From positions 1 through 52,032 of IMG/VR virus record IMGVR_UViG_3300044825_000404: 52,032 nt of DNA; one strand, 5' to 3'. The notes under the pieces were generated by a model. That model saw only the letters and a list, made by a program, of their open reading frames with translations. It did no database searches and had not been told where the DNA came from. Shown piece by piece: positions 1-45,877 of the stretch. Position 1 is the stretch's first letter. Each line of letters starts with the position of its first letter. This DNA comes from a virus. Lineage: Duplodnaviria > Caudoviricetes. A program made the translations under genes and the position numbers.

Positions 1-2449
1 GCAGCGCATCATCCCGTTGGGTCAGACGCGCCGTTTCGATGCGCTCTTTGGTCAGGTTGTCTGACGCATTGAGCGCAACATCCAGTTGCCGACGAGCGGC
101 CTTGTCTTCTGCCTCGACCTGCAGGCGTTGCTGATTGAGTTGCAGGTCACCCTGGTCACGTTGTGCCCGACGTTGCGTCTCGGCCATGGAAGTCTCCATG
201 AGCACTTGAGCCTCAGGCGGCAGTTGCGGCTTGGGAGCCATCTGTTGCATGGTCTGCATCAGTTGCTGAATCAGCGGCACGATACGGGCGAATGCCTTCT
301 CGGAGTCCTTCTTAACGTGCTGCGTGGCCACAGAGAAGACCTTGTCCAGTTCTGCGGTCAGGCGACGATCTTCGTACTCGGCTTCCGTCACCGGTTGGCC
401 ATCCCGCACCTTGGTCACATACCCGTTGGTACGGTTCAAGTACCACAGCACCATGTGCTGCTTGATGTGCTCCAGAGCCCGCGGCAGGTAGAACGAGGCC
501 ATGATCGGGTTGCTGCCGAAGGCCGGGTTCAGGGCAAAGTCCAGGTGGGTCTGAATGTGCGCCAGATGATCCTGCTGAATATAGGCAAAGGCGTGACGCC
601 CCAAGGCCATGGCCACATTCTCGTCAGCAGCGTTGAGTTCCTCAGGCTCAGGCGTGTCCTTGAGGATCTCGTTGATCCCTGGCACCTTCAACTGCTTCAG
701 GAACCGCTCTTCCACCGCCCGACGGTCGTACAGGTCGGGGTTCTCCTTGGCACGAGCCAGGACGGCCTGCATCTGGGCCATCCGCTGCGTCTCGGAGAAG
801 ATGTGCGGGTCAGAGACAGGGACAACATCCGTGTTGCGGTTGAAGTCCGTGCGCTCAATCTCTAGGTCGGCGACCACCTCACCCTTGCGCTGATCGTCTA
901 GATGCCACCGGTTCAGGCGGCCTAGGATCTTCAGCACCCGGCTCTGAGCATCATGCAGGCGGGCATGGATGGCCGAGAAGACCGCAGCACCCTGCTCGAT
1001 CAGGGCCTGGGTCGTTCCCACCGGAGCGTTGTTGTTGATGTCGGCGATCTTCTCTTCCGCCGTCGTCACCACGCCCTTGGCTGCCTTGTCCAGGAACCCC
1101 ATGAGTTCCAACAGGACTGGCGAGGGAGGATTGAACGGCATCGGCATGGCGATCTTCTTGATGTCATCAATGCCGGGGGCTGCTTCGATCTCAATCACCT
1201 GCGTCACATCAGGCTGCACGCTCTGGCCAGAGACCTTCGCGCCCTTCAACTTCAGCATCGTGGCTGAGTTGTTGATGTGAGCGGTATCGAGCAGAGCCCG
1301 CAGAGCGCCCGTCAGGGCTGCGGACAGACCACCGATCAGGTGGGGAAGGCCGATAGCGTAAGCCCCGCGCCAGGGGATGAACTTGAACTCGACCACCCAG
1401 TCGAGTTTGGTCATCGTCTCGTCGCCATCCTCCCAGTTACGGTACAGACCAACGATCTCGTTTTCGAGTTCGTCGATCATCAGGATGTAGGGAGCCATCG
1501 CGCCCTTGGAGCGGCTGTCGCCCTCCAGTTCGAGCCATGTGTAGATGTGATAGACGTTCCGCAGGCCGTCTTCGTTCTCATCCCACTTGCGGCCTTCAAT
1601 CTTGTTGTTGGCCTTCTGAGACTTGGACTCCTCAGGCTCCATCGTGGCGCGAACCAGGGAGATGTCCTTGTACATCCCAGAACGAACCCGGCGCTTGAAC
1701 TCCCACTCGGTGATCTCGTGAATCTCGGTAGCCCGTTGAGCGGTGTAGAAGTTCGTCGCAGCGAACGGCACGATCATCCGGTCGATCGGGACAAACTCAG
1801 CGCAGGGGCGCTTCTTGTCGTCGTCGTACCAGAGTTTGAGGTACTGCGAACCACCCAGAGGCAACTGGGTCAGAAGTTGCTCCTGCTCGTCGCGGAACTC
1901 TTCGATCTGCTCCGTCAACTGCCAGTTCATGTAGTCGCGCTTGCGCTCGGCCTTCTGAACCTTCTCCTCGTCCACCTCACCCATGATCTTGGTGCGGACA
2001 GGGCCGTCAGGCGGGAACAGTTCCTTGATCGCTCGGGAGGCGAAGTCCACGCAAGCCTCAGCCATCACCGGGTGAACGACCTTGGAAGCACCCATGAAGG
2101 TAGCCCCGCCAGGAGCGTCCTTGCCCATGCCGGTGCGCTTGAGACCTTCTTCGTACTGCTTGTCGCGCTCCTCACGAGCACGCTTGTCCATCTCGACAAG
2201 TTTGATGTACCGCAGAGCGATCGTTGACAGTTCGAGTTCGTCCAGTTCCTCAGCGAGGTTGGCGTAGAACTCCTCGTCCTCCTCCGGGCCTTGGGTGTCC
2301 AACTTGACAACCGCAGACCCGTCCGGGAGTTCTTCAATCTCAGCCTCTTCCTCGGGAAGTTCGACCTCCAGGCCCTCTTCGGGCACTTCGTCGGTCATGC
2401 CCTCAATGAAGCGGCCGTACTCGGGTTCGATAGGGAATTCAGTGGCCAT
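1..2449 (-). CDS. Portal protein (3' end runs off the window)
   Basis: Missing from the ORF track because it has no stop in the window. Hand translation from ATG 2449: MATEFPIEPEYGRFIEG...GASKVVHPVMAEACVDFASRAIKELFPPDGPVRTKI...QLPLGGSQYLKLWYD...FIPWRGAYAIGLPHLIGGL...VVPVSDPHIFS. These are P22-type portal-like motifs, and the gene lies downstream of TerL. Confidence 0.85.
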   Translation of the reverse strand, partial: MATEFPIEPEYGRFIEGMTDEVPEEGLEVELPEEEAEIEELPDGSAVVKLDTQGPEEDEEFYANLAEELDELELSTIALRYIKLVEMDKRAREERDKQYEEGLKRTGMGKDAPGGATFMGASKVVHPVMAEACVDFASRAIKELFPPDGPVRTKIMGEVDEEKVQKAERKRDYMNWQLTEQIEEFRDEQEQLLTQLPLGGSQYLKLWYDDDKKRPCAEFVPIDRMIVPFAATNFYTAQRATEIHEITEWEFKRRVRSGMYKDISLVRATMEPEESKSQKANNKIEGRKWDENEDGLRNVYHIYTWLELEGDSRSKGAMAPYILMIDELENEIVGLYRNWEDGDETMTKLDWVVEFKFIPWRGAYAIGLPHLIGGLSAALTGALRALLDTAHINNSATMLKLKGAKVSGQSVQPDVTQVIEIEAAPGIDDIKKIAMPMPFNPPSPVLLELMGFLDKAAKGVVTTAEEKIADINNNAPVGTTQALIEQGAAVFSAIHARLHDAQSRVLKILGRLNRWHLDDQRKGEVVADLEIERTDFNRNTDVVPVSDPHIFSETQRMAQMQAVLARAKENPDLYDRRAVEERFLKQLKVPGINEILKDTPEPEELNAADENVAMALGRHAFAYIQQDHLAHIQTHLDFALNPAFGSNPIMASFYLPRALEHIKQHMVLWYLNRTNGYVTKVRDGQPVTEAEYEDRRLTAELDKVFSVATQHVKKDSEKAFARIVPLIQQLMQTMQQMAPKPQLPPEAQVLMETSMAETQRRAQRDQGDLQLNQQRLQVEAEDKAARRQLDVALNASDNLTKERIETARLTQRDDAL

Positions 2450-26500: not shown

Positions 26501-29500
26501 TGGTGTTGCCAACATCCGCTCCTGAAGAGATGCCAGAACTGATTGAAGAGGCAACATTTGAAGCAACGCTTTCAACAGTAGAACCGGTTGCAGCCTGCTC
26601 TGTAAAGCCCAGTTCTCGATAGGTTGTCGGTACGCCCTTCTCATCAAAGAACGCCACCATGTCGGGCGTTGCGCCAGGAGGCAGAGAAGTCGGCCGCTCG
26701 CTTACTTGCGCCCGATCGCCAACGATCTCAGAGATCCGCTCCTCCTTGGCGATCTGACGATCAAGGTCCGTTTCGGTGGCGACCTTCTCGGCGGCAGGAG
26801 TAAATCCAATCTGCCCCGCAGAGCCGGTGATGAGTTCAGGACCGACCGCCTGAACATCCACAGTTGAGGGCTGATAAGTGATGGCCGTTGGGCCACCCTC
26901 AAAAGTCATCTGCGTGGGAGTGCTACGACCCAGGAAGATCAGGTCAGCAAAGTCTCCGCTCTCATTTGTCTTGGTCTGCTGAATAGCATCAGAGAGTCGC
27001 GCATCAGTGGTAGCCGCATCCACCATGGCCGTAAGCGCACCACTTGCGATGGTCGCTTCTGCAAGCGTTCGCGGCAGGCCCTCATCCCAGTTCTTGTTCA
27101 GCGCCAGATTGCTGATGATCTTCGCGCTGCCTTCTTCAGCGTTCTCACTGGCAACCTCGCCCAGGTAGCGGGTGAGGATGCCCTTACCCTTGGTCTCCAG
27201 GAAGTCTTTGGATGCCTGACCGAGCAGGGCAACAGCGTTGCCTGTAGAGCCACCGGCAATCTTGGCTTCAACCGACAGAGCGCCAGGAATGAGTCGTTGA
27301 GCCGCAGCAGAGGCAAGGCCGGAAAGACTGGCAACAGAGCGCCCAATCTTCAGCACCTCCTCGTTGCTTAGGCCCATCCGCATGGCCTCGTCCATCGTGC
27401 TTGCCGCAGTCTGGGCGCCATGGACGCCCGCGTTGGTCAGGATGGCCGCAGCCTCCCGAGCAAGCATTCCACCCCCAATCATCCTTGCGCTTGCCATGGC
27501 ACCACCACCGGCCAGGACTGTCGGAGAGGTCTCAGCAAGGAAGCCCGCCGCCTGCATCGGGTTGACACCGTACTGGTACAGAGTCGTGAAGAACCCACCA
27601 CCCGCAGCACGGATGGCAAGGTTCATGTCATCACGGTTCTGCTTGTAGACATCCGACAGAGACCTGTCGAGTTCATTGGCGTATGAAGCAAACCCTGCGC
27701 TGATGTCGCCCTGCTCACCTCGAACCAGATCAGCAATAGTGAACGGGGCGGCAGCCACAGAAGCCGCGCCCTTGACTGCTTGCTTCAGGACATCAGACCC
27801 AATCTGGGCAACCTCTGCAGGTTGCGTCCTACCACCCATGGCCTGCCACTCTTCAAAGGTTGGAGGCGCAATTTTGTTGCCCGCGGAGTCGGTCGGGACA
27901 AACTTGTCGATGTAGTCCAGATAGCGATCCATGTCGTTGAATCGCTTGCCCGTGGCCACAAAGGTCTGATCAGGCTTCGGAGGCGCTACCTTCTCAACCT
28001 CCTGAACTGTTGGCACACCACCCTCACCGGTGACCATCTGTTGAGCGGCCGCCGTGTAGTCGATTGCGGGCTCAGATGGCTGAACAGGTGGCTTGGTCGC
28101 CGTCTTGTCGGGCGTGAATCCCGTCGTAAGAGAGTCAACCGGAGCGCCCTCCATGCCCGTAGCGGCAGCAGAAAAGTCTGTCTGCGCCGTCTCAATCGGA
28201 GCAGTTTCTCCACGAAGAGGAACATTCTTCAGATAGGCAGTTGCCTCTCTGGTGTCAGGAACAACCGCGCCACGCCCAGAACCTGCTGCTGCAGCAGGCT
28301 CAGAGATCGTGATCTTGGGAATGCCCATCTGCAAGATGGGAATGCCGGTTGCTCTCGCGGTTGCAACGTCAATGGCATCAGGGATCCGATACTCCTTGCC
28401 CTGATACATGAAGGTGCCGGTCAATCCATCATTGAACGCCTTCATGCCCGCCTGATCAATACTTCCGGCGCTGCTGTAATCAGGTAGAGAAGCGACGCGT
28501 TGCTGCTCCATGTAAGCCTTATTGGCCTGCGATAGTTCGTCTTCCCCAGTGCGAGAGACGACATAGATGTTTCCAGAACGAGCCGGGAACTCAAAAGTTC
28601 CATAGCCGCGAGATGAGGCAAGAGCACTTGCTTCATCAAGCGTTTTGACATCCATGCTCGGATCAATCTGAAGAGCCTGATCTCGGCGGATGGACTCTGT
28701 TACATCCTTCTCAGTAGGAAGAGCGCCTTGAGGGAAGGCTTGACCTGCCTTTTGGCCCTCTGCGATCAGTTCTCTAGTTGGAGCCTGAGACGCATAGTCA
28801 ACGGCATTAAACAGATCAATCGCCGCGCCGATGAGTTGCGACGGATCCGCACCAGATCGAACCAAATTCAGCATCACCGCAGACTTGGCGGCGATCGAAG
28901 CATTCGGAGAGTCAGCCAACTGGCCAACAGCGTTGATGATGCTGTTGACGTTTGGCTTACTAGAGAACACTTCAGCAGCAAGATTGGCTGCGCCCTGGAT
29001 CTGATTCGGCGTGAAGCCAAGGTTCTTCAGGCCAGTCTGAGCGCCCGCACTAAGACCACCGACAAGAGCACCAACCCCCAGGCCACTCGTGTCTCCAGTT
29101 GCGATGGCTGATGGAATAGCCCCAATGAGTCCTTTCGTCGCTCCGCCCAGAATTTCGCCCGTAAGTCCAGGTCCAACCGCGGTCTGCACAGCGCCACTGG
29201 CTTGGGAAGCCAACTGGCCCGCTCCACCGCCTAGACCGCCAACAACAATCGACTTCAGGAGATCAGAGCCTGATGCGCCAGACGCAACACCACCAAGACC
29301 GCCAAGAACAGCGCCCCCGGCGATGGATCCTCCCATGCCAGTACCAAAGCCAAGAGCCTCGCCAATACCTGGGGCTCCCATGGTCGCACCAATAAAAGCC
29401 GCCGCGAGTCCAACCGGCTTCCGCCAATCTTCAGACTCGTCATACTTGTCAATGCCAAGAATTGTTCCGTTGGCATCCAAATTGATGATGTAGCCGCTAT

Positions 29501-32500
29501 CACCGCCAGTCTTGAGGTTCAGAGACTGACCAGTGATGTTGCCATTTGTGTCCGTGCTGACGGTCTGCTCAAATGCGGTGCCCGCAGGAGCAAAAGATGA
29601 GTCCGTATTGGTCTTGCCGGTTGTTCCGGCAATCTGATAGCCCTGAACACCTCCGAACGGGTCGCCTAATGCGATGATTGAATACTTGCCGAATTGCTGA
29701 GGAACCGCTTGTGGGCCCGCCTCTCCCGCATCCATGAATGCGTTCTGGCCGGTAATGCTTGACTTTGCGAAGTTGATGGCGTCTTGCAAAGAGAGAGTCG
29801 GAGCGCCCTGGCGATCCTCTCGCGCACCATAGTTGACGTAGTGCCTCTTCGCTTCGGCCTCTGTATCAATGCCCGCCTGTCCCAAATCGGGGTTCAGACG
29901 GACATATTCCTTCCAGTCAAATCCAGGTGGGACGGCTGAGAAGTTTTCCTCGCGGAACCCTGATTCTCCTGTGTACGGGTCGGAGAAGAATGGGCGCAAA
30001 TCTTGGCCCCAGTCATCAACCCCTTGAGCAGGAGCAGGAGCAGGAGCGGGAGCAGGTGCGGGGGCAGGTGCGGGGGCAGAGGTCTGTAGGCCATACTGCC
30101 TCATCAAGCCGCGAACGGTTGTCTCTGGAACTCTGAAGGTTTCAGCAGTAAGAGCAACCGCCTGATCAACCGGCATCCCTTCTGAGACCCAAGACTGCAA
30201 GAGGTCAAAAGCCTCCGACTCTGAGCCCTGAAGAGAAAACTGAGGCGTAGACCCTTGGGCGGCATCCAGAGCGCCTGTCGTCGTAACTTGGCCAGAGGTG
30301 TCTGCGGCTTGATCTACATCTGTAGAGGTCAACCCTGCGGCAGTAAGCGCCCCCGTGGTTTGGGCATCCTCAAGAGACTGATCAACTTCTGTAGCCTGAC
30401 CAGTTAGGTCGCCAGTGTCGATGAAGGCGCCGCCAGTAACAACATTGCCGCCTCCAGGAAGAGCGCCAGTAGTGACTCCGCCGGTCTCCCCGATGGTGGA
30501 GCCGGTCCCTCCAACGGTGCGCTTCTCTGGTTGGTTGTAGTCGTTACCAAGAACAGCCCACTCAGATGAAGGATCAAAGAGGCTCTTCGCCGCATCCGAA
30601 CCTTCCGGCTCCCAATCTTCAAGACCAAAGTTTACAAACTCACTTACGCCCGGAAGCGACATGAGTCTTTGGTTGTAAGCATTAGCGGCTTCTTCTTCGC
30701 CCTTCCTAGCAAACCCTTGTGTGACTATTTTTAGTTCTTTGCCAAGCGCGTTTACCTGAGCCGCAAAGTTCTTAGTCCAATCATAAAGTTGGTCTGCCGG
30801 AACACCCCATCCCAGATACGGATCAAGCGCAACAAAGTCAGCATTTGAATTTCTGATCTCATCAAGCAACTGCTGATCTGTTGCTTTGCCTTGGAATACA
30901 GGGTAAGGCGAAATAACAACACCCGCCCTTTGGCCCTTGGATTGCGTATCTTTAACCTTCTTGACTAGGTCTGAGCCTACAGGGCTATGAGGGTTCCAAA
31001 ACAACTCGTCAGAGATAACAACTTCATTCCCGCGCTGAAAAATTGCATCAGGAGACTTAATTGATTTGCTCGTTGGATCTTTTGTGGCATTTGATCCCGT
31101 AACCCAACTATTTGCATCTCCAAAGTTTGATAGCAAAGGCCCAGAGCCCGTCTTGTTAAAGAAGTCAGTAACTGTAAAGTTAGTCCCAAGAGCGCGGTTC
31201 CACAAGTTGACCGCATCCTGCGGCCTCATTCCTTGTTGAACAACCCAATCAAGCCCACGCTGCGTTGCCACCGCATCGTTTGCGCCGCCTTGATAGATGT
31301 ATTGCTTGAACCATTCCGGCGAACCGGCCACCGGAGTAGAAGCCGCTTGAGAAAGCGCAGAGCCAGTAATACCTGTCTGACCTGCGGCGCTCTCGGTGCT
31401 AGAAACATCTCTGCGCTGATTGTCTGCAACAGTGAGACCAGAATCCTTCTTGGCTAGAGTCGTTTGACTCAAGGTCTGGCCGATCTTGTCAGCCATCAGG
31501 CGACCAAATTCAGCGTTTTGATGCACCCCGTCAAGCAGGGAGCCTGCAGGGATCCCAACGCTACGAACATCAACAAATGGCAGGTTGTACTTCTGCGCCA
31601 GTTGCTGAATGCCTGCGTTGATCTGATCGGCAACCGTCGCGCTCTCACGGGTCAAATACCCGGCGATGTTGCCGCCGATGGAGTCCGCACCACCAAAGAA
31701 CGGAGACACCCCAACAAGAACAGGCGTTGATCCGTTGCGTTGAGCAATCTGGATCATCTGCTCAATGTTGCTCAGGGACTTGTTGGCATCCCCAAGTTTG
31801 ATGGCGTCTGCCGCTCCATAACGAAGCACAACCTGATCAGGTCGATTGGTTGAGATGTAGTTCTCAAAACTGCCGTAGTCTGTGTTCCCGGTCAGGGCAT
31901 CTTGAGAAGTCTGCCCGCCAGTAGCGACGTTGTTGACAACACCGCCCGTGTAGTCGGACAGAACACCTTCAAGAGAGTTGCCGCGAGAAGTATCCGCGCT
32001 ACCGTCCATGCGGTAGCCCAATACAGAACTGATGGAGTCGCCAAAGACGGTTGTCTTGAATGGCGAAGTTTCTCCAGATGCCCGGTAGTAGTCGTTGACA
32101 TTGAATTGCGTCCCCAGAGCCCGATTGAACTCGGTGACCGCCTGCATGGGGGTCCAACCCTTCTGCTTGGCATATTCAATAGCCCGTTGAGTAGCGGTGG
32201 CGTCATTTGCGCCACCCGCATACATATACTGCTTGAACCACTCAGGGGTGCCTTCCGTGGGCCCACTAGGTGCAGCCATCTGCGTTACGCTGCCCAAAGC
32301 ACCAATGTTTTCATTTGGAAGACCGATTGCATCTTCCATGAAGGACGGCACAGAACTGACATTGATGGGAGGCTGAATGTTTGCAGTCACCCCTCTCGCA
32401 GCAGGCAAACCTCCGACGCTTGTCAGCGCAGATGTGCTCAATCCCGAAAGATCTTGTCCGATGTCAATCGAATCATCCTCCGGTATGTCCAGAGGAGACT

Positions 32501-32546
32501 GATAGCCGTCCATGCGGTCTTCGTATTGATTGATGGGCAGTGCCAT
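23538..32546 (-). CDS. Giant (3002 aa) internal virion protein with an SGNH hydrolase, a putative glycan-related domain and V/S/A/T repeats
   Basis: FGDSIS/GGQTS/YGAAD/DGVH SGNH blocks; FDWKEYVRLNPDL module; C-terminal GDGQSDDIPAWLADGEFVFPADVVSALGNGS domain. Confidence 0.75.
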   Translation of the reverse strand: MALPINQYEDRMDGYQSPLDIPEDDSIDIGQDLSGLSTSALTSVGGLPAARGVTANIQPPINVSSVPSFMEDAIGLPNENIGALGSVTQMAAPSGPTEGTPEWFKQYMYAGGANDATATQRAIEYAKQKGWTPMQAVTEFNRALGTQFNVNDYYRASGETSPFKTTVFGDSISSVLGYRMDGSADTSRGNSLEGVLSDYTGGVVNNVATGGQTSQDALTGNTDYGSFENYISTNRPDQVVLRYGAADAIKLGDANKSLSNIEQMIQIAQRNGSTPVLVGVSPFFGGADSIGGNIAGYLTRESATVADQINAGIQQLAQKYNLPFVDVRSVGIPAGSLLDGVHQNAEFGRLMADKIGQTLSQTTLAKKDSGLTVADNQRRDVSSTESAAGQTGITGSALSQAASTPVAGSPEWFKQYIYQGGANDAVATQRGLDWVVQQGMRPQDAVNLWNRALGTNFTVTDFFNKTGSGPLLSNFGDANSWVTGSNATKDPTSKSIKSPDAIFQRGNEVVISDELFWNPHSPVGSDLVKKVKDTQSKGQRAGVVISPYPVFQGKATDQQLLDEIRNSNADFVALDPYLGWGVPADQLYDWTKNFAAQVNALGKELKIVTQGFARKGEEEAANAYNQRLMSLPGVSEFVNFGLEDWEPEGSDAAKSLFDPSSEWAVLGNDYNQPEKRTVGGTGSTIGETGGVTTGALPGGGNVVTGGAFIDTGDLTGQATEVDQSLEDAQTTGALTAAGLTSTDVDQAADTSGQVTTTGALDAAQGSTPQFSLQGSESEAFDLLQSWVSEGMPVDQAVALTAETFRVPETTVRGLMRQYGLQTSAPAPAPAPAPAPAPAPAQGVDDWGQDLRPFFSDPYTGESGFREENFSAVPPGFDWKEYVRLNPDLGQAGIDTEAEAKRHYVNYGAREDRQGAPTLSLQDAINFAKSSITGQNAFMDAGEAGPQAVPQQFGKYSIIALGDPFGGVQGYQIAGTTGKTNTDSSFAPAGTAFEQTVSTDTNGNITGQSLNLKTGGDSGYIINLDANGTILGIDKYDESEDWRKPVGLAAAFIGATMGAPGIGEALGFGTGMGGSIAGGAVLGGLGGVASGASGSDLLKSIVVGGLGGGAGQLASQASGAVQTAVGPGLTGEILGGATKGLIGAIPSAIATGDTSGLGVGALVGGLSAGAQTGLKNLGFTPNQIQGAANLAAEVFSSKPNVNSIINAVGQLADSPNASIAAKSAVMLNLVRSGADPSQLIGAAIDLFNAVDYASQAPTRELIAEGQKAGQAFPQGALPTEKDVTESIRRDQALQIDPSMDVKTLDEASALASSRGYGTFEFPARSGNIYVVSRTGEDELSQANKAYMEQQRVASLPDYSSAGSIDQAGMKAFNDGLTGTFMYQGKEYRIPDAIDVATARATGIPILQMGIPKITISEPAAAAGSGRGAVVPDTREATAYLKNVPLRGETAPIETAQTDFSAAATGMEGAPVDSLTTGFTPDKTATKPPVQPSEPAIDYTAAAQQMVTGEGGVPTVQEVEKVAPPKPDQTFVATGKRFNDMDRYLDYIDKFVPTDSAGNKIAPPTFEEWQAMGGRTQPAEVAQIGSDVLKQAVKGAASVAAAPFTIADLVRGEQGDISAGFASYANELDRSLSDVYKQNRDDMNLAIRAAGGGFFTTLYQYGVNPMQAAGFLAETSPTVLAGGGAMASARMIGGGMLAREAAAILTNAGVHGAQTAASTMDEAMRMGLSNEEVLKIGRSVASLSGLASAAAQRLIPGALSVEAKIAGGSTGNAVALLGQASKDFLETKGKGILTRYLGEVASENAEEGSAKIISNLALNKNWDEGLPRTLAEATIASGALTAMVDAATTDARLSDAIQQTKTNESGDFADLIFLGRSTPTQMTFEGGPTAITYQPSTVDVQAVGPELITGSAGQIGFTPAAEKVATETDLDRQIAKEERISEIVGDRAQVSERPTSLPPGATPDMVAFFDEKGVPTTYRELGFTEQAATGSTVESVASNVASSISSGISSGADVGNTISSSVSDAVSTAVQSGESATSVVGSIVNSAVNSAIVSGAEPSAAIGGAVSSAVTSAIDSGSNAGSAINSAVSSAVASAVSSGVDVQSAVTSAVNSAVSSVVDTGASVADAITSSVNSAVSSAISAGSDVSTAVNSAVSAAVGSAVLSGADTTSSIVDAVTSAVAAASSAGADILTVANAATDAAIDAGLSIPEAVGIVNQIVQAESEFRAPAPEQTFAPPVEAAPAPSPAPAASTAPSPAPAPVPAPVPEPVAEPVLAPSPVSIEPAPSVMAQEQPIQQTATAEKTQEQKNLEQMFFEAQFPNLANLETDISTALSTGTDVGQVVSTAVSAAVNNAVQTGTDVVAAVESATTSAVNAAVNSGADVSTAVSNSVSNAVSTAVNTGADPGSVIDKSVSGAVTSAVTGAIASGVEVGSAVTSAVDSAVSSAVVSASNTGTNVSTAVTSAVSSAVNNSIAAAVNTGTDVSTAIDSSVSSAVNSAVAAATATNTDVSTAVSSAVSSAVSTAVSTAVSTGTNVSTAVSTAVDSAVSGAVVASVTTGVDTATSVSTAVNSAVTSAVEAAVSQGVSTDTAVNTAVSSAVSSAVSTAAQTGADVNISTSNAVSTAISTAVDTAVSTGTDTQTALNTAVTTAVSSAISTAVETGADVQQVTSSAVESAVSTAVDTAVSTGTDVATAVNTAISNAVTSAVNSGAPATTAIDAVVNTVTKLGVNPDEALVIATQAVTSAGQDTSQLTSQLTSEPTPQQPATTRQPTLNFPVQTGLPSFVLEGTSGEYGRLPPQMLPSRVTQQYIDPLAQLRQAQEQVGRQEMMQNIDPRLAAILAERMGVPQAQQTPAPEPYYSYGEEEPIDKILNIPEAPKVEEPVGYAKGGYVMPLMAKEGGMPMPLMAKSGGLPTHKGGREDFKDGKHVAGEGDGQSDDIPAWLADGEFVFPADVVSALGNGSTKAGTDKLYEMMHNIRHRARSKGPKDLPPPALKSPLDYLKSKR
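24330..26590 (-). repeat. Two blocks of degenerate ~19-23-aa coding repeats (G-T/A-D-V-S-T-A-V-x-S-A-V-S-x-A-V) split by a Pro/Ala linker
   Basis: Visible in the translation of 23538..32546. Confidence 0.8.
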
Positions 32547-32547
32547 A

Positions 32548-32793
32548 TCAAGTTCCCGGATTGATAGCGCCGACTAGGGCCTGAGCCCACTCTTGCCAGT
32601 CGTCAAAGTTGTAGGGGCTTGGAACACCTTGGTTGGTGAAGACATCAATGGCCATCAGGCCCGCCCCCCAAGACTTCCAGTCCACCGTCGGGCCTGGAAT
32701 CTGAAGTTGCTGCTCTGCGTACAACTCGCACATCAGAGACGCCCATGACTCAAAGTCGTGATACCTCGGGTCATAGATCAGCCCGATGCTCAT
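32548..32793 (-). CDS. Small conserved virion-module protein
   Basis: YDPRYHDFESWASLMCE...FDDWQEWAQAL; coupled to both neighbours. Confidence 0.75.
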   Translation of the reverse strand: MSIGLIYDPRYHDFESWASLMCELYAEQQLQIPGPTVDWKSWGAGLMAIDVFTNQGVPSPYNFDDWQEWAQALVGAINPGT

Positions 32794-35700
32794 GTGCTGT
32801 ACCCGCGAACATCACCGATGTCGGCATCCACGATTACCTTACCCGCCTGATAGTTGCCATCCACGACGTTTGACACGAACTTCAAGCGCAACAAGCGCCG
32901 CTGTTCCTTCATGTCAATTTTGCCTGTCGTTGGACTAAAGGTATATGGGTTTGAGACCTGATCTTGCTCTTTCGGGTAGGGACGACCCACGACATACAAG
33001 TCCATGTCGCCCTGCTGCACGAAGTCAGGCTCCACCCGCTCCAGGCGCAGCCACCGGTTCTCGCCCACCGGAGAGGGCTGAGAGGGGCCGCCTGCGATCA
33101 GACCCAGGTCAGAAGTCGTGAACGAACTCTCGATGGCCAGGACGTTGGTGCCCTGAACGACATTCGTGCCGTACTCGTGCTGCCACAGGGAGACCTCGTT
33201 CGTATTGTTCTCCTCCCACCCTGCGTTGATGGGAAAGCGGAACACCTGCGAGAAGTACCCGGCAGAACGACGACCACCAAGAGCCTCGCCTAGGTCGTAC
33301 CAAGTGTTCTCTCGGATGTTGTAGATGATCGCGTCGTTGCACTCGGTAGAGTCGCCGCGGGGGTAGAACCACCAGATCTCGCCGAACCGGGGAACCTTCG
33401 TAGCCCAAACCTTCTGCGACTGCGAGTAGTTCAGGTTGTCGAAGAAGTGGTTCTGGTTCATGTCGTTGGGGATCTCTTTGACCACACCGTTGTACAACAT
33501 GAACCGGTCCACGCCGATCCAGAAATAGATACCGTCGTACTCAATAACGCACTGGCTTGACAGGATCGAGGTCTGACTGGAGATGATGTCGTAGCGCCAA
33601 TACTGTGGAGGCGTACCCGTCCCGCCGATGTAAGACACCCGGATCAGGCTGTCCAGGCTCCAGAACAGGCCAGAAGGCGCGTTGGAGCCGCCTCGAACGG
33701 GAAGACCCTTGACGATCTTGCCGGTGGCCACGTTCGTTTCGTTGGCGTCTGGCGAGTTCCAGTCGGTCGGATCTCCCGCAGAACAGTTCTTGATCAGGCC
33801 GTCATTGCCGTACACAAACACATACGGATGCAGGGCCACAACCCCGCCAGAGACGCTGATCACGCTACCCGTAGGATTCGCACCTCCGGTGTCTTTCAGG
33901 GGATAGACATCCGATCCGGTGATGTCGCCGTACAGAACAGGCGTGTTGATCGTGCTGTCGATCTGAGCGAGGTTCTGGCCAGGATGAGCCAACAGCAGGT
34001 TTTCACCCCCGGTGACGCTGTATAGACCATCGAACTGCCACAGGTTGTTCGGACTGGCCGTGAACTGCTCATCCACAGTGGCCACATCAATTGAGAACCC
34101 GTTGCTGTTGTAAGTTGCAGATACCGGGACGGAGAACCCAGAACTTTGGTTGACCGACAGAACCGTGAACTGGAACCCTGAACTGGCGATTGTGAAGGTC
34201 ACCGGGATTGAGAATCCTCCGGCGCTTCCGAGAGATGCCACGGGTACGGAGAAACCGGAACTTGAGTACACCGTGTTGACCACGACCGAGAAGCCGCTAC
34301 TGGTCACCACCGTGGCCACAGGGAACGAGAAGCCGGTGCTGTTGTAAACCGCCGTGACAGGCACGACGAACCCTGCACCAGTGCCGCCGATGTCCGTAGC
34401 GTTGGCTGACAGGATGTTGGTGGCGATGTAGCCGCGGCCGCGACTGGTGATGGTTACCGCAGTAACAGCCCCGCCGGATACGGTGATGGAGGCTTGAGCA
34501 CCAGTCCCAGAGCCGCCGATCAGCGGGACATTCGTGTAGGTCACCGTAGCATTGATCGTGGCCACAGGCACCGAGAAACCGCTTCCCGTACCGCCGATGC
34601 TTGACGCTAGAGCGGACAGACTGTCACCGGGTTGATAGCCGCTACCGCGATCAACGATGGTCACGGTCGTGACAACGCCGCCCGCAACCGTGATGTCTGC
34701 AGTCGCATCAATCCCAGAACCAGTCAGAGAGGTCAGCGAAACGCCAGTGTAAGTGCCGTTCGTGTATCCAGAGCCGCCAACGACCGTCCCCAGGGTGGCA
34801 ATCTCATTACCTGTGTATCCAGAGCCGCCGGTGATCGCTCCAAGCGTCTGCACACCGTTACCAATCGCGGATGCCGCGGCGCTCATGGTGTTGGCAACCG
34901 TGTATCCGTTGCCCTTGGTCGTGATCGTGACCGAGGTCACCGTGTTGCCAGAAACAACAATGGTGGCCTTTGCACCAGTACCGGACCCGCCTGTCAGAGA
35001 GACATTGGTGAATGTGCCGTTGGTGTAGTTAGAACCACCCGTGATCGCGCCGATCGTGTCGATGCCGTTGACAAACCCACCAAGATCAGAAGCGGCCGCG
35101 CTCAAGGTGTCCGAAGCGGTGTAGTTGATGCCTCGATCAGTCAGGGTGACCGATGTCACCGTCCCAAGCGCCACCACAATAGTGGCCTTGGCGCGGGATC
35201 CAGTGCCCCCAGTCAGGGACACGTTCGTGTACGTCCCGTCCGTGTAGTTGGTTCCACCAGTCGGAGCGTTGAGTGTGTTGATGCCGTTGCCGATCAGCGC
35301 AGCAGAACAACTCAGGCTGTCGGCCACGGTGTAGTTCTGACCAGGGTTGGTCACAGTAACTGCCGTCACTGCGTTTCCAGAGACCACGACAGTCGCTGTA
35401 GCACCAGTACCAGTACCACCCGTCAGGGGAACCGCGGTGTAGGTGCCGTTCGTATAGTTCGATCCGCCGGTGATGGCACCAAGAGTTGCGACCCCGTTTG
35501 TGAATCCGCCTAGGCTTGCAGAGAGACTGTCTCCGATGGCGTAATTCACCCCAGGCGCAACGAGTTGGACGGCAGAGACAGAGTTGTTGGAGACGATGAT
35601 GTTCGCCGTCGCGCCAGTGCCAGACCCACCGGTCAGGGGTGTGTCTCGATAGATTCCAATCGCGCTGATCGTGGTGGACGCGACCGACTGGCTCCTATTG

Positions 35701-37370
35701 ATGTTGTAGGTGCCCGCGCCACCAGTGCCGGTTCCAAGAGCAGTGATGACCGTGTCATCCGCAACGCCTGCGCCGAAGATGGTCTGCCCTACAGCGAACG
35801 TGCCGGTGATCGTCCCGCCTACGGTCAGAACAGTTCCAGAGATGGAGGATGCGCTTCCGGAGGCTGTCGAAGAGTTGGTGTAGAACCCACCACCCGTGAT
35901 ACCGCCAAGGGACGCGATCACGCCAGACACCCCGCCGATGTCTTCTGCGGGAGCCGACAAGACATTACCAACAGCATATCCACTGCCGTTGTTCGTCAGC
36001 GTAACCCTTCCAACACCTTCTGTGGTCAGCGTTGCAACATCACACTGGAATCCGGTACTGGTTGCGACGGAGTTGATAACGATGAACAAGCCCGAACCAG
36101 ACCCTCCAACATCAGAAACATTGGCCTGCAGAACTTGCCCGAAGGCATACCCAACCCCGCCATAGACAAGCGTTGCGGAGATGACAGTGCCGCCAGACAC
36201 GACGAGCGTTGCTCGAACACCAGTTCCGCTGCCGCCCGTCAATGGAACATTGGGGTAGGTTCCATCAACATAACCAGAGCCCCCGGTGCTCACAAAAAGA
36301 GAAGTTACTCCCTTGCCAATACTGTTGACCGAGCAACTCAGCACATCGTTGACGGTGTAGTTGTTCCCGCCAAAAGTCACCGCGACAGACACCACATTCC
36401 CGCCAGAAACGGTGATGGTGGCCAGTGCTCCGGTTCCAGTTCCTCCGGTCAGAGCGACATTGGGGAACGACCCGTTGGTGTACCCGCTTCCGCTGACGAT
36501 GTTGTCAACCGTGGCGATGCCGTTCTGCAGGACTTCCACTGTCCCCACAGCATTGATGCCGCTACCGCCCGTGAAGGACACATTGGTGTAGGTTCCAGGC
36601 GTGTACAGAGAGCCAGGAACCAAAAGGCCGTAGGTGTTGATGATGCCGGTCAGGCCGCCGATGTTGGCAGGCGTTGCGCTCAGGACATCCCCAACGGTGT
36701 ACCCCACGCCACGATTGGCCGCCACAATGCCCGTCACGGCCCCGCCAGAGACCGTGATGTTCGCCGTTGCCCCACTTCCTGTGCCGCCGGTCATCGGAAC
36801 GCTGAGGTAGGTCCCGTTCGTATACAGAGAACCGCCCGTGATTGAGCCGTAGGTCTGCACTCCATTCCCAATCGCAGAAGGCGCACAGGACAAGGTATCC
36901 CCAGGCAGGTAGCCGTTGCCGCCATCTGTAAGGGTCACGGAAGAGACCGCGTTCGCGGTGACCACAATCGTGGCCTTAGCGCCGAACCCAGATCCACCGG
37001 TCAGATCGACATTGGTAAAGGTTCCGTTGGTGTACTCAGATCCACCGACAAGCGTGTTCAGCGTGAGGATCGGGCCTGAGATGCTGAAGTTTGTGATGCC
37101 TGCGCCGATGCCTTCGTTCGTGATCGGAAGCACCTGCAAGCCATCAGACCATCCATTGAAGACGCTTGTGAAGCCATCCGCCGGATTGACGTAGATGCCC
37201 CGAGAAGGCCCGCTCAACGCATCCGTGATCTGACGGTATCCGCCGATCTTGCGGGGACGACCCCGCTGAAAGCGAACCCACTGGCCATCGGTGTAGAACT
37301 CCTTGTCAAAGAGAGTTCCATCCCGCTGAATGCCGGACTTGGTGTCGAGCGCGAATACCTTCTTGGTCAT
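32790..37370 (-). CDS. Tail nozzle / P22 gp10-like stabilisation protein with a ~1000-aa Gly/Thr module insertion
   Basis: N-terminal WVRFQRGRPRKIGGY and C-terminal propeller-like FGEIWWFYP, YNIRENTWY and RVEPDF segments, with GGSxYTNGTYTNVxLTGGxGxGA repeats between them. Confidence 0.75.
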   Translation of the reverse strand: MTKKVFALDTKSGIQRDGTLFDKEFYTDGQWVRFQRGRPRKIGGYRQITDALSGPSRGIYVNPADGFTSVFNGWSDGLQVLPITNEGIGAGITNFSISGPILTLNTLVGGSEYTNGTFTNVDLTGGSGFGAKATIVVTANAVSSVTLTDGGNGYLPGDTLSCAPSAIGNGVQTYGSITGGSLYTNGTYLSVPMTGGTGSGATANITVSGGAVTGIVAANRGVGYTVGDVLSATPANIGGLTGIINTYGLLVPGSLYTPGTYTNVSFTGGSGINAVGTVEVLQNGIATVDNIVSGSGYTNGSFPNVALTGGTGTGALATITVSGGNVVSVAVTFGGNNYTVNDVLSCSVNSIGKGVTSLFVSTGGSGYVDGTYPNVPLTGGSGTGVRATLVVSGGTVISATLVYGGVGYAFGQVLQANVSDVGGSGSGLFIVINSVATSTGFQCDVATLTTEGVGRVTLTNNGSGYAVGNVLSAPAEDIGGVSGVIASLGGITGGGFYTNSSTASGSASSISGTVLTVGGTITGTFAVGQTIFGAGVADDTVITALGTGTGGAGTYNINRSQSVASTTISAIGIYRDTPLTGGSGTGATANIIVSNNSVSAVQLVAPGVNYAIGDSLSASLGGFTNGVATLGAITGGSNYTNGTYTAVPLTGGTGTGATATVVVSGNAVTAVTVTNPGQNYTVADSLSCSAALIGNGINTLNAPTGGTNYTDGTYTNVSLTGGTGSRAKATIVVALGTVTSVTLTDRGINYTASDTLSAAASDLGGFVNGIDTIGAITGGSNYTNGTFTNVSLTGGSGTGAKATIVVSGNTVTSVTITTKGNGYTVANTMSAAASAIGNGVQTLGAITGGSGYTGNEIATLGTVVGGSGYTNGTYTGVSLTSLTGSGIDATADITVAGGVVTTVTIVDRGSGYQPGDSLSALASSIGGTGSGFSVPVATINATVTYTNVPLIGGSGTGAQASITVSGGAVTAVTITSRGRGYIATNILSANATDIGGTGAGFVVPVTAVYNSTGFSFPVATVVTSSGFSVVVNTVYSSSGFSVPVASLGSAGGFSIPVTFTIASSGFQFTVLSVNQSSGFSVPVSATYNSNGFSIDVATVDEQFTASPNNLWQFDGLYSVTGGENLLLAHPGQNLAQIDSTINTPVLYGDITGSDVYPLKDTGGANPTGSVISVSGGVVALHPYVFVYGNDGLIKNCSAGDPTDWNSPDANETNVATGKIVKGLPVRGGSNAPSGLFWSLDSLIRVSYIGGTGTPPQYWRYDIISSQTSILSSQCVIEYDGIYFWIGVDRFMLYNGVVKEIPNDMNQNHFFDNLNYSQSQKVWATKVPRFGEIWWFYPRGDSTECNDAIIYNIRENTWYDLGEALGGRRSAGYFSQVFRFPINAGWEENNTNEVSLWQHEYGTNVVQGTNVLAIESSFTTSDLGLIAGGPSQPSPVGENRWLRLERVEPDFVQQGDMDLYVVGRPYPKEQDQVSNPYTFSPTTGKIDMKEQRRLLRLKFVSNVVDGNYQAGKVIVDADIGDVRGYST

Positions 37371-40980: not shown

Positions 40981-41184
40981 TCAGATCCCCAGTAGGTTCT
41001 TCAGGAACACCGCGGCCACTCCAGGCCCAAGAAGTACAGCGACGATCGTGATGTAGAGCAGATACTCGATGTTCCGCATCCGCCTGCTACCGTCTTCGAG
41101 GCGCTTTTCAATGACCTCGTAGCGTTGGGCGCACACAGCCTCATGCACAGCAAACCGGGTTTCAATCGGCTCGTCCACGATCAT
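40981..41184 (-). CDS. Small coiled-coil plus TM protein (holin/hemolysin-like)
   Basis: HEAVCAQRY...IEKRL...TM tail. Confidence 0.65.
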   Translation of the reverse strand: MIVDEPIETRFAVHEAVCAQRYEVIEKRLEDGSRRMRNIEYLLYITIVAVLLGPGVAAVFLKNLLGI

Positions 41185-42392
41185 CCTTTCAGTTTCTCAA
41201 GTTCAGCGGAAAGTTCTTGCACCGCCTTTACTAGGGCGTAGATGACGGCATCAGAAGAGACGGACAGCAACCCGTTGTCATTTGTCCGAACACACTCCGG
41301 CATGACCTGCTGCAGTTCTTGGGCGATAAAGCCCGTCACAAGCCGGTCCGGATCAAGACCGATGGCCAGGGGGACGCCGTTCTCGTCTTTTGGCATCTCA
41401 CCCTCAGGCTTGTAGTTGAAGTTGCGGACGCGCAGTTGCTTGATCTCGGCAAGACCCTTGGGCGAGTCCACGATGTTGCGCTTGATGCGCTCGTCTGAGG
41501 TTGTCTCCCAGGTGGTGACGTTCTTGGCGTTGTAGGCCCCGTTGGTGCCGCCGATGAAGGCCGTCTGCGTACCCTTGCCAGTCAGACCACTGCCGATGAC
41601 CAGTTCAAAAGTGACGTTGTTGGCACTTGCCGCCGCAGAAGTGCCGATGTAGGTGTTGTCAGACCCGGTAGTGAGGTTCGTCGTCGTGGAAGCCGCACCG
41701 TTGCCGATGATGACATTGTTGGAGCCGGTGTTGACAAAGTCACCCGCTTCGTATCCCAAGCAGGTGTTGTTGGTTCCGACATTGATCCGGGCGCCCGCGA
41801 AATAACCAATACCGGTATTACCGGTGCCAGTAGTTATTTTGTTTAGCGCCAAGTAACCAAGGGCTGTTGCGCCGCTTCCGGTATAAGAAGTGCAAGTATC
41901 ATCACCTACAGCAACATTACCAATCCCTGTGCTGTTTGAGACAAGAGAACTTGAGCCAATCGCAATATTGGAGATTCCTGAATTCAAACTTCCTAGAGCG
42001 GTTGATCCTATTGCAATATTGAAACTCGCCGAAATTGCGTTTGCAAGAGCGTTAGATCCAACAGCAACGTTATCACTTCCGGTCGTTAGATCTGCCCCCG
42101 CAAACTCTCCAACAAACACATTTCTAACGCCAGAAGTGACTACAGAACCCGCGGCGTTTCCAAGAAAAGTAGAAGAACCGGGGGTCTCAAATGTGGTCGT
42201 GGTCTTGCCAATCAACGCGGCAGCAGCCTTGGTGGCAATCGTCTGAACAGACCCAGTGCTGTCCTTGTAGAACAACTTCCCATCAAAGGCGTTGATGGCC
42301 AGTTCGCCGTTGGCAAGGTTACCCGCCGTCGGCGCTGCCGAAGGGGTGGCCGAGTAGTAGATCTTGATGGGGGTGTAGCCTGTCTGAGCCAT
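41181..42392 (-). CDS. Tail fibre/spike with C-terminal intramolecular chaperone (peptidase S74-like)
   Basis: GELAINAFDGKLFYKD N-terminus, NxAxG beta-roll repeats, TSDERIKRNI...GFIAQE...LVKAVQEL. Confidence 0.85.
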   Translation of the reverse strand: MAQTGYTPIKIYYSATPSAAPTAGNLANGELAINAFDGKLFYKDSTGSVQTIATKAAAALIGKTTTTFETPGSSTFLGNAAGSVVTSGVRNVFVGEFAGADLTTGSDNVAVGSNALANAISASFNIAIGSTALGSLNSGISNIAIGSSSLVSNSTGIGNVAVGDDTCTSYTGSGATALGYLALNKITTGTGNTGIGYFAGARINVGTNNTCLGYEAGDFVNTGSNNVIIGNGAASTTTNLTTGSDNTYIGTSAAASANNVTFELVIGSGLTGKGTQTAFIGGTNGAYNAKNVTTWETTSDERIKRNIVDSPKGLAEIKQLRVRNFNYKPEGEMPKDENGVPLAIGLDPDRLVTGFIAQELQQVMPECVRTNDNGLLSVSSDAVIYALVKAVQELSAELEKLKG

Positions 42393-42395
42393 GGT

Positions 42396-42581
42396 TCACT
42401 CCTGCTTCTGTTCTTCCTCTTTGGGAGGATCTTGAGGTGCCAACTGGGCTTCTGCCTGCGTCTTGACCTTCATGGCCACAGGGAATGCTCCAGACTTGGT
42501 GGGAAGTTCACTCAGCCCCGCGAGGATGAGTTGGATGTCTTCAATGGTGAGGTTTTTTAGAGTCAGCATATTTTTACTCAA
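42396..42581 (-). CDS. Small tail-fibre assembly-type protein
   Basis: ILAGLSELP...KVKTQAEAQ; lies between fibre genes. Confidence 0.6.
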   Translation of the reverse strand: MSKNMLTLKNLTIEDIQLILAGLSELPTKSGAFPVAMKVKTQAEAQLAPQDPPKEEEQKQE

Positions 42582-45500
42582 AAAGCAACAAGAAGTTTGC
42601 CGTTACTGGCGGCGGCACATAAATCGGGAACACAGATATGTCTTTTATGTAGACATAGTTCGTTGAACCACCAGAGGAGAAAGCCCAACCAGAGTTGTTG
42701 CCGCCATCAGTGCTGTTCGCGCCTGCATACCAAAATCCGATTGCCCTTGTTAGGGTTGCTCTAAGCCCTGGAACTGAGGTGTATATCCTCACCACATTAC
42801 TAACATTACCAGTATAGGTAAAGTTGTTTATTGTTTGGGTTGTACCGCTAGTAAATACAAGTTGCTGAAATGCGCCGTTTGCTAGGGTGGCAAATGTATT
42901 ACTCCCGCCCACACTCAAAGTGTTTGCGGTTGTGCCATTGTTATTTGTAACCGTCCCAAATGTAAGGCCGCCGCCTAAAAATGATTTATTGCTTGCATTT
43001 GTTAAAGAAATAGATGAAGAAGCGCCAGAAAATGTAAGTCCTGATGAGTTGTCAAAGTTAATTGGCCCTGTGCCCGCACAACTAATGGTGCTAGTGCCAA
43101 AATTTATAGTTCTAGTGTTTGAGTTAGAACTAGTAATTGATGAGCAAGTTACATTGTAGTTTTGAGTGCTATAAGAGCCCCTGGTTATCGTAATGCTTGC
43201 AGCAGATGACAAAAACGCATCACCATGCCTAAAGTCGCAGGAAGGATTATCAATATTTATTGAGTTTCCTCCTTTGGCGGCAGTGGTAAATGTTTGAGTT
43301 GAAGATCCTCTAAAAAAATATGTTCCAGTGTAAAGATTAGTCACGCCAGATCCATAAGTTACATTGCCATGTATGTAACTAACTTGGCTTCCTGACCATG
43401 TGACAACAGTTGTTCGGGCTGAAAAATCTATGGTTCCAATGTTCCAACCGGTGTTTACTGTTATTTGAGTGGCCGCCCCTGCGTCATCAAACACCGCCGT
43501 GTCTTGAGCCAAGGGGAAGTTGTTTGCGGCAGGAGACCCTCCACTGGTAAGGGCCCACCCAGTAGAAGACCAGTTCTGGGTTCCGGTCAAGTTCCAATAG
43601 ACCGTCTTTGGCGCATCAAAACCGATGCCGCTGTTGTTGCCGCAGTCACCTATACGAGTGCCACCAGTCCATGTACCAGTTCCTGCTGCAACGATGTCTT
43701 TGAAATCAATGTCGCTCAAACCGACCACAGTACCTGCCGTGATGGTTCTTTGCACCCCAGGAGGCTCACTTACATAGGTTCTTCTCTGTGTTACAGAACC
43801 ACCCGCACCAAGGTCAAAAGTCCCTGTGACTGTGACATTACCGTACAGCACAGCAAACAAAACACCCGTCGTCGAGGTTTGTGAGGGAACTGTCAACGTG
43901 CCATAGGTTGTGTTCCCATAGAAATTTGGGTTAACCGATGACGATGACATCAATGCACTGCCAAAACTCGCAGTTATTCCACTGAACCCAAGAGTAACGA
44001 ACGATGAAGTAGAAACAATACTTGCGGTGTTGGCGGTGACCGTTAATCCTGAAGAGTTTCCTGACGAACCAACGCCAGTTGTTGCATTGAGAGTGCTAGA
44101 ACCGAATGTGTATGTCCTTGTCGGCGTATACGATACACTGACAGTGGTTATGCTGTTGCAGGTTACGGTGTTGTTGGCAGTGTCAAATGTGCCTTGTTCT
44201 AGGTTGATAGTTCCAAACCCGCAATTCAACGATCCCCCAAGAGTTATTGTTCCTCCTGGAGAGTTAATAGTAACGCCACCTATGTTTCTTCCGCCAGTAT
44301 TCAAAGTCGCCGCACTTCTTGCGAAGAACGACATGGTGCCGCTACCACTAGTAAAAGTGCTAGTTCCGTTGAGAATAAAGTCCCCATACATAATTGTGGG
44401 GTTGTTGATATTAAGAGTTACACCGTTTGTTCTGCTGCTTGTATTGATGGACTTGACATTAAATGCGGCAAGTGTAAGTGTAGTACCACTATTTAAGCCT
44501 GCGTTGTCAATAATTACATCATCTTGAGCAAGAGGAAAATCATTGACAGATGCCGTCCCGCCACTTGTGGTCGTCCAAATGGTCGCCGTCCAACTTGAAC
44601 TAATCGTCCCTGCGGCAATATATTTGTTGACCCCGGCTGAAAATGTGATGCCAGAGTTGCCAAGGGCGTTGCCTAGTCTTGTCCCGCTCCATGGGGCAGA
44701 TGCGCCAGTAACTGCGATGTCCATGAAGTCAACATCAGACAAAGCAGAAACAGCGGCAACATTGAAGGTTCTCGTAGCGCCCGGTTGGTTAGACCTAAGA
44801 AAGTACCTTCTGGTTGGGGACAAGCCAGTAATGGTGAATGTCCCGTTTATGGTTTGATTTCCATAAACATTTATTGTGACTAATCCAGTTCCTGCGCTTA
44901 ATGCGCCTAGGGTGAAATTGTTGTATACGTTGTTCCCGTATATGTTACTAATGATAATCCCGCTGCCGCAAGTGACATTATTAAATGTAACAGTGTTAGA
45001 GCCTTGTGTCCCAAAACTCCCTGCAGATGTAAGAAACTGAATTGTTGATGTTCCGGCATTGAATGAAACAAAATCATTCAACAAGAAATTGCCAAAATTG
45101 CTGACAAAAAATGTAGAAGATCCAAGATTGACTGCTGATGCAACACTTGGTTGGGCAAAAAAACCGCCACAGTTTACTAGGTAACCGTTAGTGTTAAAAG
45201 TTCCTGCAGATAGAGTTAATTGTCCGCATACTAAACTAGAGCCAAGATTAAAAGTTCCTCCAACACAGTTAATGAAAACCTGTCCGGTTGTCAGTTGAGT
45301 TCCGTTTGTGGTGCAAGTTTGGCTTGCTGTAGACTGAAAGTAAACACTTCCAGTGTAAGTCCTTGAAACGCCAGTAGCGGCAAATGTCAAGTCTCCATAA
45401 ATGAACCAAGCGGCACTTCCGGCAATAGTTACTACCCCAGATGTAGGGCCGCTTATATTGCAAGATTTGCAAACAGCGCCAGTTGAAATAGTTACCGTAT

Positions 45501-45660: not shown

Positions 45661-45661
45661 A

Positions 45662-45874: not shown

Positions 45875-45877
45875 GGA

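Follow-up and report, generated by a model that had tools for sequence, protein, structure and literature searches.

Results

A probable nozzle protein with about 1000 extra residues in a single loop

The window analysed here is a complete virus record of IMG/VR (IMGVR_UViG_3300044825_000404), 52,032 bases long, classed as linear and estimated to be 92% complete, and with a gene content that includes portal, terminase, endolysin and tail-fibre genes. This work concerns one of its open reading frames (ORFs), P0001, which lies on the minus strand at 32790-37370 and encodes a protein of 1526 amino acids (aa); all of the features of P0001 described below are on that strand. From sequence comparison and predicted structures we consider it quite probable that P0001 is the tail nozzle of an uncultured short-tailed phage, in which a surface loop near residue 100 has been expanded by a module inserted into itself, and this estimate applies to the whole topology set out below.

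Residues 1 to about 100 and about 1105 to 1526 of P0001 align to insert-free relatives of about 510 aa, for example a 510-aa protein of Caulobacter phage GB2A, which leaves an insert of about 1000 aa (residues ~97-1100) at a single loop between the N-terminal part (residues 1-96; 37083..37370) and the C-terminal part (1101-1526; 32793..34070). A phage from a spring metagenome encodes a homologue of 672 aa with just one module, located at this insertion site. When the C-terminal part of P0001 was searched against 1.84 billion representative proteins, 2229 relatives were obtained at E<=1e-3, most of the best 150 being about 500-530 aa long, and no module was present in 150 of the 225 distinct family proteins and ORFs that were scanned.

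The identification as a nozzle runs via the family profile and not via P0001 alone: a profile of 69 short members (the matches of the C-terminal part at E<=1e-75) matched the PDB chains 8zkk_O and 8zkm_E, annotated 'nozzle gp16', at ~5e-16 and 9nwi_Y at 5.5e-24. An earlier reading of the sequence alone (the original prediction below) had proposed a nozzle protein with an insert in one loop, and this holds through the profile and the insert-free relatives. The likeness to podophage nozzles of the T7 gp12 and P22 gp10 type (8zkk, 8zkm, 9nwi_Y) lies in the ~510-aa family to which the N- and C-terminal parts belong, and P0001 differs from the known nozzles by its 1000 or so extra residues. Pfam, including PF11134 (Phage_stabilise), gave no family for P0001 at E<=0.1 and none of relevance among the 69 short members. 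A related record names its P0001 homologue 'phage stabilization protein', beside a 'tail protein' gene, a label that we take to be that of P22 gp10. P0232, P0230 and proteins of about 910 aa carry a precomputed PF11134 tag; at E<=0.01, hmmscan matched P0232 to no family.

The insert contains eleven modules and eleven closing strands

The insert consists of 11 copies of a module of about 75 aa, one unrelated domain of 74 aa and 11 closing strands. A hidden Markov model (HMM) of the module was built from eight intact copies, the cores of which start at residues 109, 179, 293, 363, 635, 705, 778 and 865, and this HMM found three further, split copies as independent partial matches (i-E 3e-10 to 7e-22). 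PHROG profiles matched the array independently, phrog_5342 in 10 stretches with an E value of 1.6e-75, so that the eleven copies counted in the original prediction are confirmed by two kinds of profile. An HMM of the closing strand gave 11 matches in P0001 and no others.

Following the chain from the base of the insert, an entry linker strand, L0 (97-108; 37047..37082), precedes the core of M1 (109-170; 36861..37046), the linker L1 (36837-36860) and the core of M2 (179-240; 36651..36836). M3 is split into M3a (251-288; 36507..36620) and M3b (450-482; 35925..36023), for which the module HMM matched residues 253-288 (HMM positions 2-37) and 447-480 (positions 28-61). Between these halves lie the core of M4 (293-354; 36309..36494), M5 with its own strand s5 (363-435; 36066..36284), which would form the tip of a side branch, and the strand s4 (436-449; 36024..36065). 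M6 is also divided, into a head at 493-499 (M6a; 35874..35894) and the rest (M6b, 574-622; 35505..35651), matched by the HMM at 572-619, with the unrelated domain X6 (500-573; 35652..35873) between them; X6 matched phrog_21413 (E 4.6e-13) and no Pfam family, and is duplicated in relatives of 1702 aa. The intact cores of M7 (635-696; 35283..35468), M8 (705-766; 35073..35258) and M9 (778-839; 34854..35039) follow. The last split copy is M10, with its head at 848-855 (M10a; 34806..34829) and the rest, matched at 944-996, in the segment that also carries its own strand s10 (942-1009; 34344..34547); enclosed between these is a complete closed module, the unit L10, M11 and s11 (856-941; 34548..34805). 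Thus M3 and M10 are interrupted internally by modules and M6 by a different domain, just as had been proposed.

Beyond s10 the chain contains seven orphan strands, o1 to o7 (1010-1100; 34071..34343), which start at residues 1013, 1026, 1039, 1052, 1065, 1078 and 1091 (nt 34077-34334), a spacing of 13 aa, and are the same seven sequences that the original prediction had picked out. No 39-nt DNA tandem repeat was found under this array, so it is neither a recent duplication nor an assembly artefact. Where the original prediction had four modules closing locally, only M5, M10 and M11 are closed immediately after their own core; the strand of M4 (GFQCDVAT, residue 440) comes after the nested M5, and M4 is therefore an open module as well. 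This correction leaves the balance of seven open trunk modules and seven orphan strands untouched.

Predicted structures pair the orphan strands with the trunk modules in reverse order

Since nesting would make each inner unit complete, residues 621-1050 (L6 through o3) should be self-contained. AlphaFold 2 (AF2), run on this segment with a 64-row alignment whose register had been checked, gave a model with a mean predicted local distance difference test score (pLDDT) of 92.9 and a predicted template modelling score (pTM) of 0.71, in which s10, o1, o2 and o3 were all modelled as strands (pLDDT blocks of 93-96). Pairing was read out by aligning the model with the structure aligner VIA to 48,161 PDB chains, which gave 50 rows (model residue = protein residue minus 620). 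Contiguous PDB domains of about 90 residues aligned to a module core plus one orphan strand, with 60-83 residues aligned per row: six rows spanned 145-164..400-403, equivalent to the M9 core plus o1, five spanned 75-91..412-417 (M8 plus o2), and two or three spanned 1-5..423-430 (M7 plus o3). Three more rows spanned 217..390, corresponding to M10 with M11 skipped, and 23 spanned 233-238..317-321, the closed M11. Thus 13-14 of the 50 rows joined a core to the orphan strand expected from the reverse order, and none of the 50 joined M9 to o3 or M7 to o1.

A different explanation of the same arrangement would be that the seven units of 13 residues together make up a domain of their own, a beta-meander or a linker, and that the trunk modules simply lack their last strand. 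The connectors of 4-5 residues between the strands could form hairpins, as this would require, and AF2 scores by themselves do not tell the pairing partner of each strand; the VIA ranges, however, link each of o1, o2 and o3 to a different module core. The outer strands bear on the same point. Residues 93-634 and 1049-1110 were submitted as two chains with residues 635-1048 omitted, and the interaction prediction score from aligned errors (ipSAE) was 0.69, 0.69 and 0.70, compared with 0.00 for the best of three controls. The partner pLDDT in these runs was 85-86, at least 98% of contacts agreed and 383-387 residue pairs were confident. Of 157 solved complexes, 116 reach the ipSAE mark used, as do 2 of 215 mismatched pairs; these counts are only a rough guide here as the runs used our own alignment.

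In the lowest-error contacts of the split-chain runs, o5 (1068-1073) touched residues 244-250, in the linker entering M3, and 467-471 of M3b (the latter through 1068-1070), o6 (residue 1085) touched 172/173 in the linker entering M2, and o7 (residue 1094) touched residue 160 in M1. The interface also included M6b (579-621) and the base of the insert (97-114), and no contacts fell within the side branches M4-M5 (293-449) or X6 (500-573). This pattern fits the predicted order o4-M6, o5-M3, o6-M2 and o7-M1, and because each module's closing strand is placed next to the linker through which that module is entered, the two ends of a closed module would be adjacent. The spread of confident pairs over M6b, M3, M2, M1 and the linkers is not what a separate strand domain would give; furthermore, in closed modules the same strand comes directly after the core, and across architectures the number of orphan strands tracks the number of open modules (7, 3, 1 and 0; see below). 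That explanation was therefore already disfavoured, and we regard it as very improbable. The predictions instead favour completion of the modules by the orphan strands in reverse order, as originally proposed. A discontinuous outer domain with a complete inner domain in one of its loops is seen in the models only, and the loss of the M11 unit as a whole in relatives supports it.

Modules and closing strands are balanced among homologues

Among the 342 matches to the insert were about 70 distinct nozzle proteins of 1446-1994 aa, which covered it at 46-88% identity. Homologues as long as P0001 share 88-97% identity with it within the insert. In an alignment of 72 sequences, the unit made of L10, M11 and s11 was the only module-sized indel inside the array; it was wholly absent from 28 of the 72 relatives and was never missing in part. 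No complete protein in this alignment lacked a trunk module or an orphan strand. Three proteins (P0221, P0216 and P0179) had seemed to be unbalanced, and were dropped as truncated gene calls because they start in the middle of a module without the conserved N-terminus.

The numbers of modules and strands were equal in every complete architecture that was parsed (11/11, 10/10, 6/6, 5/5 and 2/2). P0002 has 11/11 at this site, arranged as in the window, and P0217 likewise has seven open trunk modules and seven orphans, with foreign domains inside its M8 and M9. P0005 (6/6), together with four colinear relatives, has three open trunk modules and three stacked orphans; in P0232, which is also balanced, three modules are nested (C holds D and D holds E) with one orphan strand, and P0231 (5/5) has five closed tandem modules and no orphan. 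L004 (2/2) has its inner module in another loop of the outer module. A strict GF/GL strand lies no more than 24 residues from the core in 56 of the 65 single-module proteins, and a variant of it in another six. The unit indel in 28 of 72 sequences and these further architectures favour the proposal that module and strand numbers covary in homologues, and together with the structure predictions they support recursive, out-and-back insertion of domain within domain.

Automatic counting of strands was tried and discarded, as a 12-residue HMM undercounted and a broad regular expression both over- and undercounted. Two of the IMG/VR loci, L004 (~3263-4531) and L006, encode two-module nozzle inserts in which the inner module occupies a fourth acceptor loop, running from the third strand to GxGY. 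The C-terminal part of the nozzle family has two further insertion hot spots, at ~33210 (residue ~1386) and ~33900 (residue ~1155), as seen in L030, L037, L023, L073 and P0002. The former holds an extra module of 80-86 aa in 66 of the 72 long relatives and is empty in P0001; the latter carries, in other relatives, X6-like domains or long arrays of a different repeat of about 48 aa.

Residue covariation was calculated as mutual information with average product correction from 68 sequences (effective number 48). Among the 5040 possible assignments of orphan strands to trunk modules, the reverse order ranked 11-19, and the forward order ranked about 3100-3700.

Several results weigh against this topology. 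All of the VIA matches were weak (Z<=4.2), with the pairing taken from the first and last aligned residues and from the split-chain contact list, and one row (21..413) does not fit, beginning in M7 and ending in o2. Both predictions share the same family alignment and so are not independent of it, and AF2 of the whole insert (93-1110) from a single sequence gave a pLDDT of 34.5 and was unusable. The balance of modules and strands rests on alignment occupancy and parsing by eye, and automatic motif counts were noisy and mostly unbalanced (99 of 127 multi-module proteins with the regular expression). In the covariation analysis, the top-scoring permutation swaps M7 and M8, although it otherwise equals the reverse order, the best block of mutual information falls on the expected module for only three of the seven strands (o1, o5 and o7), and nested recombination mosaics could mimic part of this signal. 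The fold and comparison data also bear on topology, and not directly on function, length or outward projection. Finally, the monomer model is compatible with an exchange of strands between subunits.

According to such an exchange, the orphan strands would complete modules of the neighbouring nozzle subunit and so lace six appendages into one collar. It predicts balanced counts and covariation equally well, nozzles are described as hexamers in PMC11784390, and neither the monomer nor the split-chain predictions separate the same chain from another chain. Closure within one chain is nevertheless better suited to the connectors of 4-5 residues and to the direct run of o7 into a conserved nozzle segment; the single-chain AF2 model, with its pTM of 0.71, closes M7, M8 and M9; and the same module arrays occur in proteins of other assembly states. 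We therefore think that exchange between subunits is unlikely, if less remote than a separate strand domain.

The module is found in other virion proteins and in flagellar hooks

Relatives of the module (PHROGs 5342, 6005, 438 and others) occur in cyanophage gp7-like baseplate, fibre and virion proteins, and 267 of the 281 phage records with module matches are from Synechococcus, Prochlorococcus or cyanophage. Arrays of up to about 22 copies were also seen inside flagellar hook proteins of the FlgE type, namely P0219 and P0220 (2528 and 2522 aa), P0263 (914 aa, the FlgE of Polynucleobacter tropicus), P0227, P0238 and P0243, where the Pfam FlgE rod, D1, D2 and C-terminal families flank the array and the copies that were parsed were mostly closed and in tandem. 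The module is further present in RHS-repeat proteins (P0226 and P0237) and in proteins of about 2500 aa with a precomputed PF13385 tag (P0234-P0262).

Neither the module nor X6 nor full-length P0001 matches a Pfam family. Searches of PDB sequences for relatives of the insert or module gave chance rows only (best E 0.91 with phmmer and 0.19 with the module profile), Foldseek against the PDB with the 621-1050 model returned nothing at E<=1e-3, and the ESM Atlas had only unnamed clusters for the module. With the same model, rather than a single module, as the VIA query, the best structural match was residues 99-188 of T4 gp18 at a Z of 4.2, with none reaching 5. An EF-Tu domain II-like barrel, the gp18 domain and a baseplate-protein domain were weighed as candidates for the fold, and no VIA Z exceeded 4.2.

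Neighbouring genes

The nozzle gene lies among genes for virion and tail proteins and is followed downstream by a giant ORF. No match to a tail-tube or sheath family was found among these neighbours, many of which match no family at all. The giant ORF (23538-32546, minus strand; 3002 aa) lies just downstream of the nozzle gene, with an 81-aa ORF between the two. A GDSL-like lipase/acylhydrolase domain (PF13472, 1.3e-12) covers residues 167-346 of its product, which otherwise matches no informative family and may be a giant virion or ejection protein. A tail-fibre-like protein of 403 aa (41181-42392, minus strand) ends in a Peptidase_S74 (endosialidase chaperone) domain (5.5e-14). The GC content falls to 0.47-0.48 at 42001-46000, compared with 0.53-0.62 elsewhere, and this dip spans an ORF of 1028 aa (42574-45660) without a family match, possibly a gene for a fibre or receptor-binding protein that was acquired recently.

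Discussion

The best account of these data is that a beta module of about 75 residues has been inserted into itself repeatedly, building an appendage of about 1000 residues at one loop of the nozzle. Each module would be built in the order of a short entry linker strand, a core and a closing strand (GFxVPVxx) laid against the entry linker, and since the two ends of a closed module would then be adjacent, a whole module could be inserted into a loop of another. In the trunk modules M1, M2, M3, M6, M7, M8 and M9 the next module would occupy the loop that leads into the closing strand. The chain would thus run outward to a tip made of M10 with M11 inside it, and on its return hand over one closing strand per module in reverse order: o1 would close M9, o2 M8 and o3 M7, then o4 would close M6, o5 M3, o6 M2 and finally o7 M1, after which the chain would re-enter the nozzle. 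Side branches would be formed by M4 and M5 in the hairpin of M3, with s4 closing M4 after M5, by M11 in M10 and by the unrelated X6 in M6.

Prediction and comparison between them show, at the level of models and sequences, an out-and-back trunk of M1-M2-M3-M6-M7-M8-M9-M10 with the side branches M4-M5, X6 and M11, the longest predicted path passing through nine module levels. On the same grounds, growth would proceed by insertion of whole closed modules, as with the M11 unit, and the module would have at least four acceptor loops: after GGxxYTxG (used in M6 and M10), in the beta hairpin (M3), ahead of GxGY (L004) and, in the trunk, ahead of the closing strand. We infer that each joint between modules is crossed by two segments of chain. 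Folding would then probably proceed from tip to base, because no outer module could be completed before all of the inner ones.

If the nozzle is hexameric like the solved nozzles (as reported in PMC11784390), six such stalks would be arranged around the tail tip. These might be accessory whiskers for first contact with the host surface or for spacing, a role that we put forward only tentatively. A hypervariable tip, which would be a sign of receptor binding, was sought by column entropy along the stalk and not found: entropy was 0.66-0.97 across the modules, with a value of 0.74 for the nozzle N-terminus, so that conservation is nearly uniform. Because conservation of the stalk is similar to that of the nozzle N-terminus and separate tail-fibre genes exist, receptor specificity probably resides elsewhere, and our guess is an accessory contact or spacing whisker in preference to a determinant of specificity. 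The same entropy values and the presence of dedicated fibre genes would also suit a stalk that has the topology described but makes no contact with the host, lying along the tail or capsid to brace it or form a collar, or persisting as a tolerated expansion of low function, and most members of the family do without any insert. That the full 10-11-module architecture has been kept by about 70 distinct relatives, some with an identity as low as 46%, however, argues for selection on the stalk, and the other carriers of the module are surface-exposed proteins. We consider a stalk without host contact rather unlikely, somewhat more so than the contact or spacing role.

The principle of nesting is already known. 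Contractile-tail sheath proteins (T4 gp18 and diffocin CD1363) have two to four domains in a 'Russian doll' arrangement according to PMC6088184, and, as predicted for P0001, the inserted domains leave the outer ones discontinuous. P0001 would differ in nesting one homologous module nine deep, with side branches, and in leaving only the last strand of each outer trunk module behind. The domain folds of sheath proteins, by contrast, are unrelated to one another. In flagellin and FlgE the chain runs out and back, with both ends in a conserved assembly core. The same module arrays lie inside the D2 region of FlgE in P0263 and P0219, although those that were parsed consist mostly of closed tandem modules and are not nested as in P0001. 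In chaperone-usher pili, a beta domain without its final strand is completed by a strand from elsewhere, known as donor-strand complementation; in the models of P0001 the strand comes from the same chain, hundreds of residues downstream, and the fold is different. Searches of the literature outside subscription journals, on domain insertion of a nested or recursive kind in tail proteins of phages and on large inserts in FlgE, found no description of the module or the architecture, and nine nested levels of one homologous module appear to be undescribed.

If it is real, this architecture allows a long appendage to be made of one polypeptide that leaves and re-enters the protein at a single loop, which suits proteins with their termini locked in a ring or tube. 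It would also be an extreme case of folding, in which seven domains stay incomplete until hundreds of later residues have been made and are then closed in strict reverse order. For annotation, it means that methods that look for contiguous domains will miscount nested arrays and will take the stack of strands for low-complexity sequence. The module itself, which has neither a Pfam family nor a solved structure, is widespread among virion proteins of aquatic phages and is also present in some flagellar hooks.

A more general idea, to which we give about even chances, is that the closed module of about 75 residues is a universal insertable brick, with which both phages and bacteria grow branched, double-stranded stalks of a single chain from one loop of ring-forming proteins such as the nozzle and the flagellar hook, P0001 being a nine-level self-similar protein that can fold only from tip to base. 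If so, the termini of ring-forming proteins would stay in the assembly while the stalk grows from a loop, seven modules would each wait for a strand made up to about 900 residues later, and this would be a principle of fibre building apart from trimeric fibres and from arrays of domains strung like beads.

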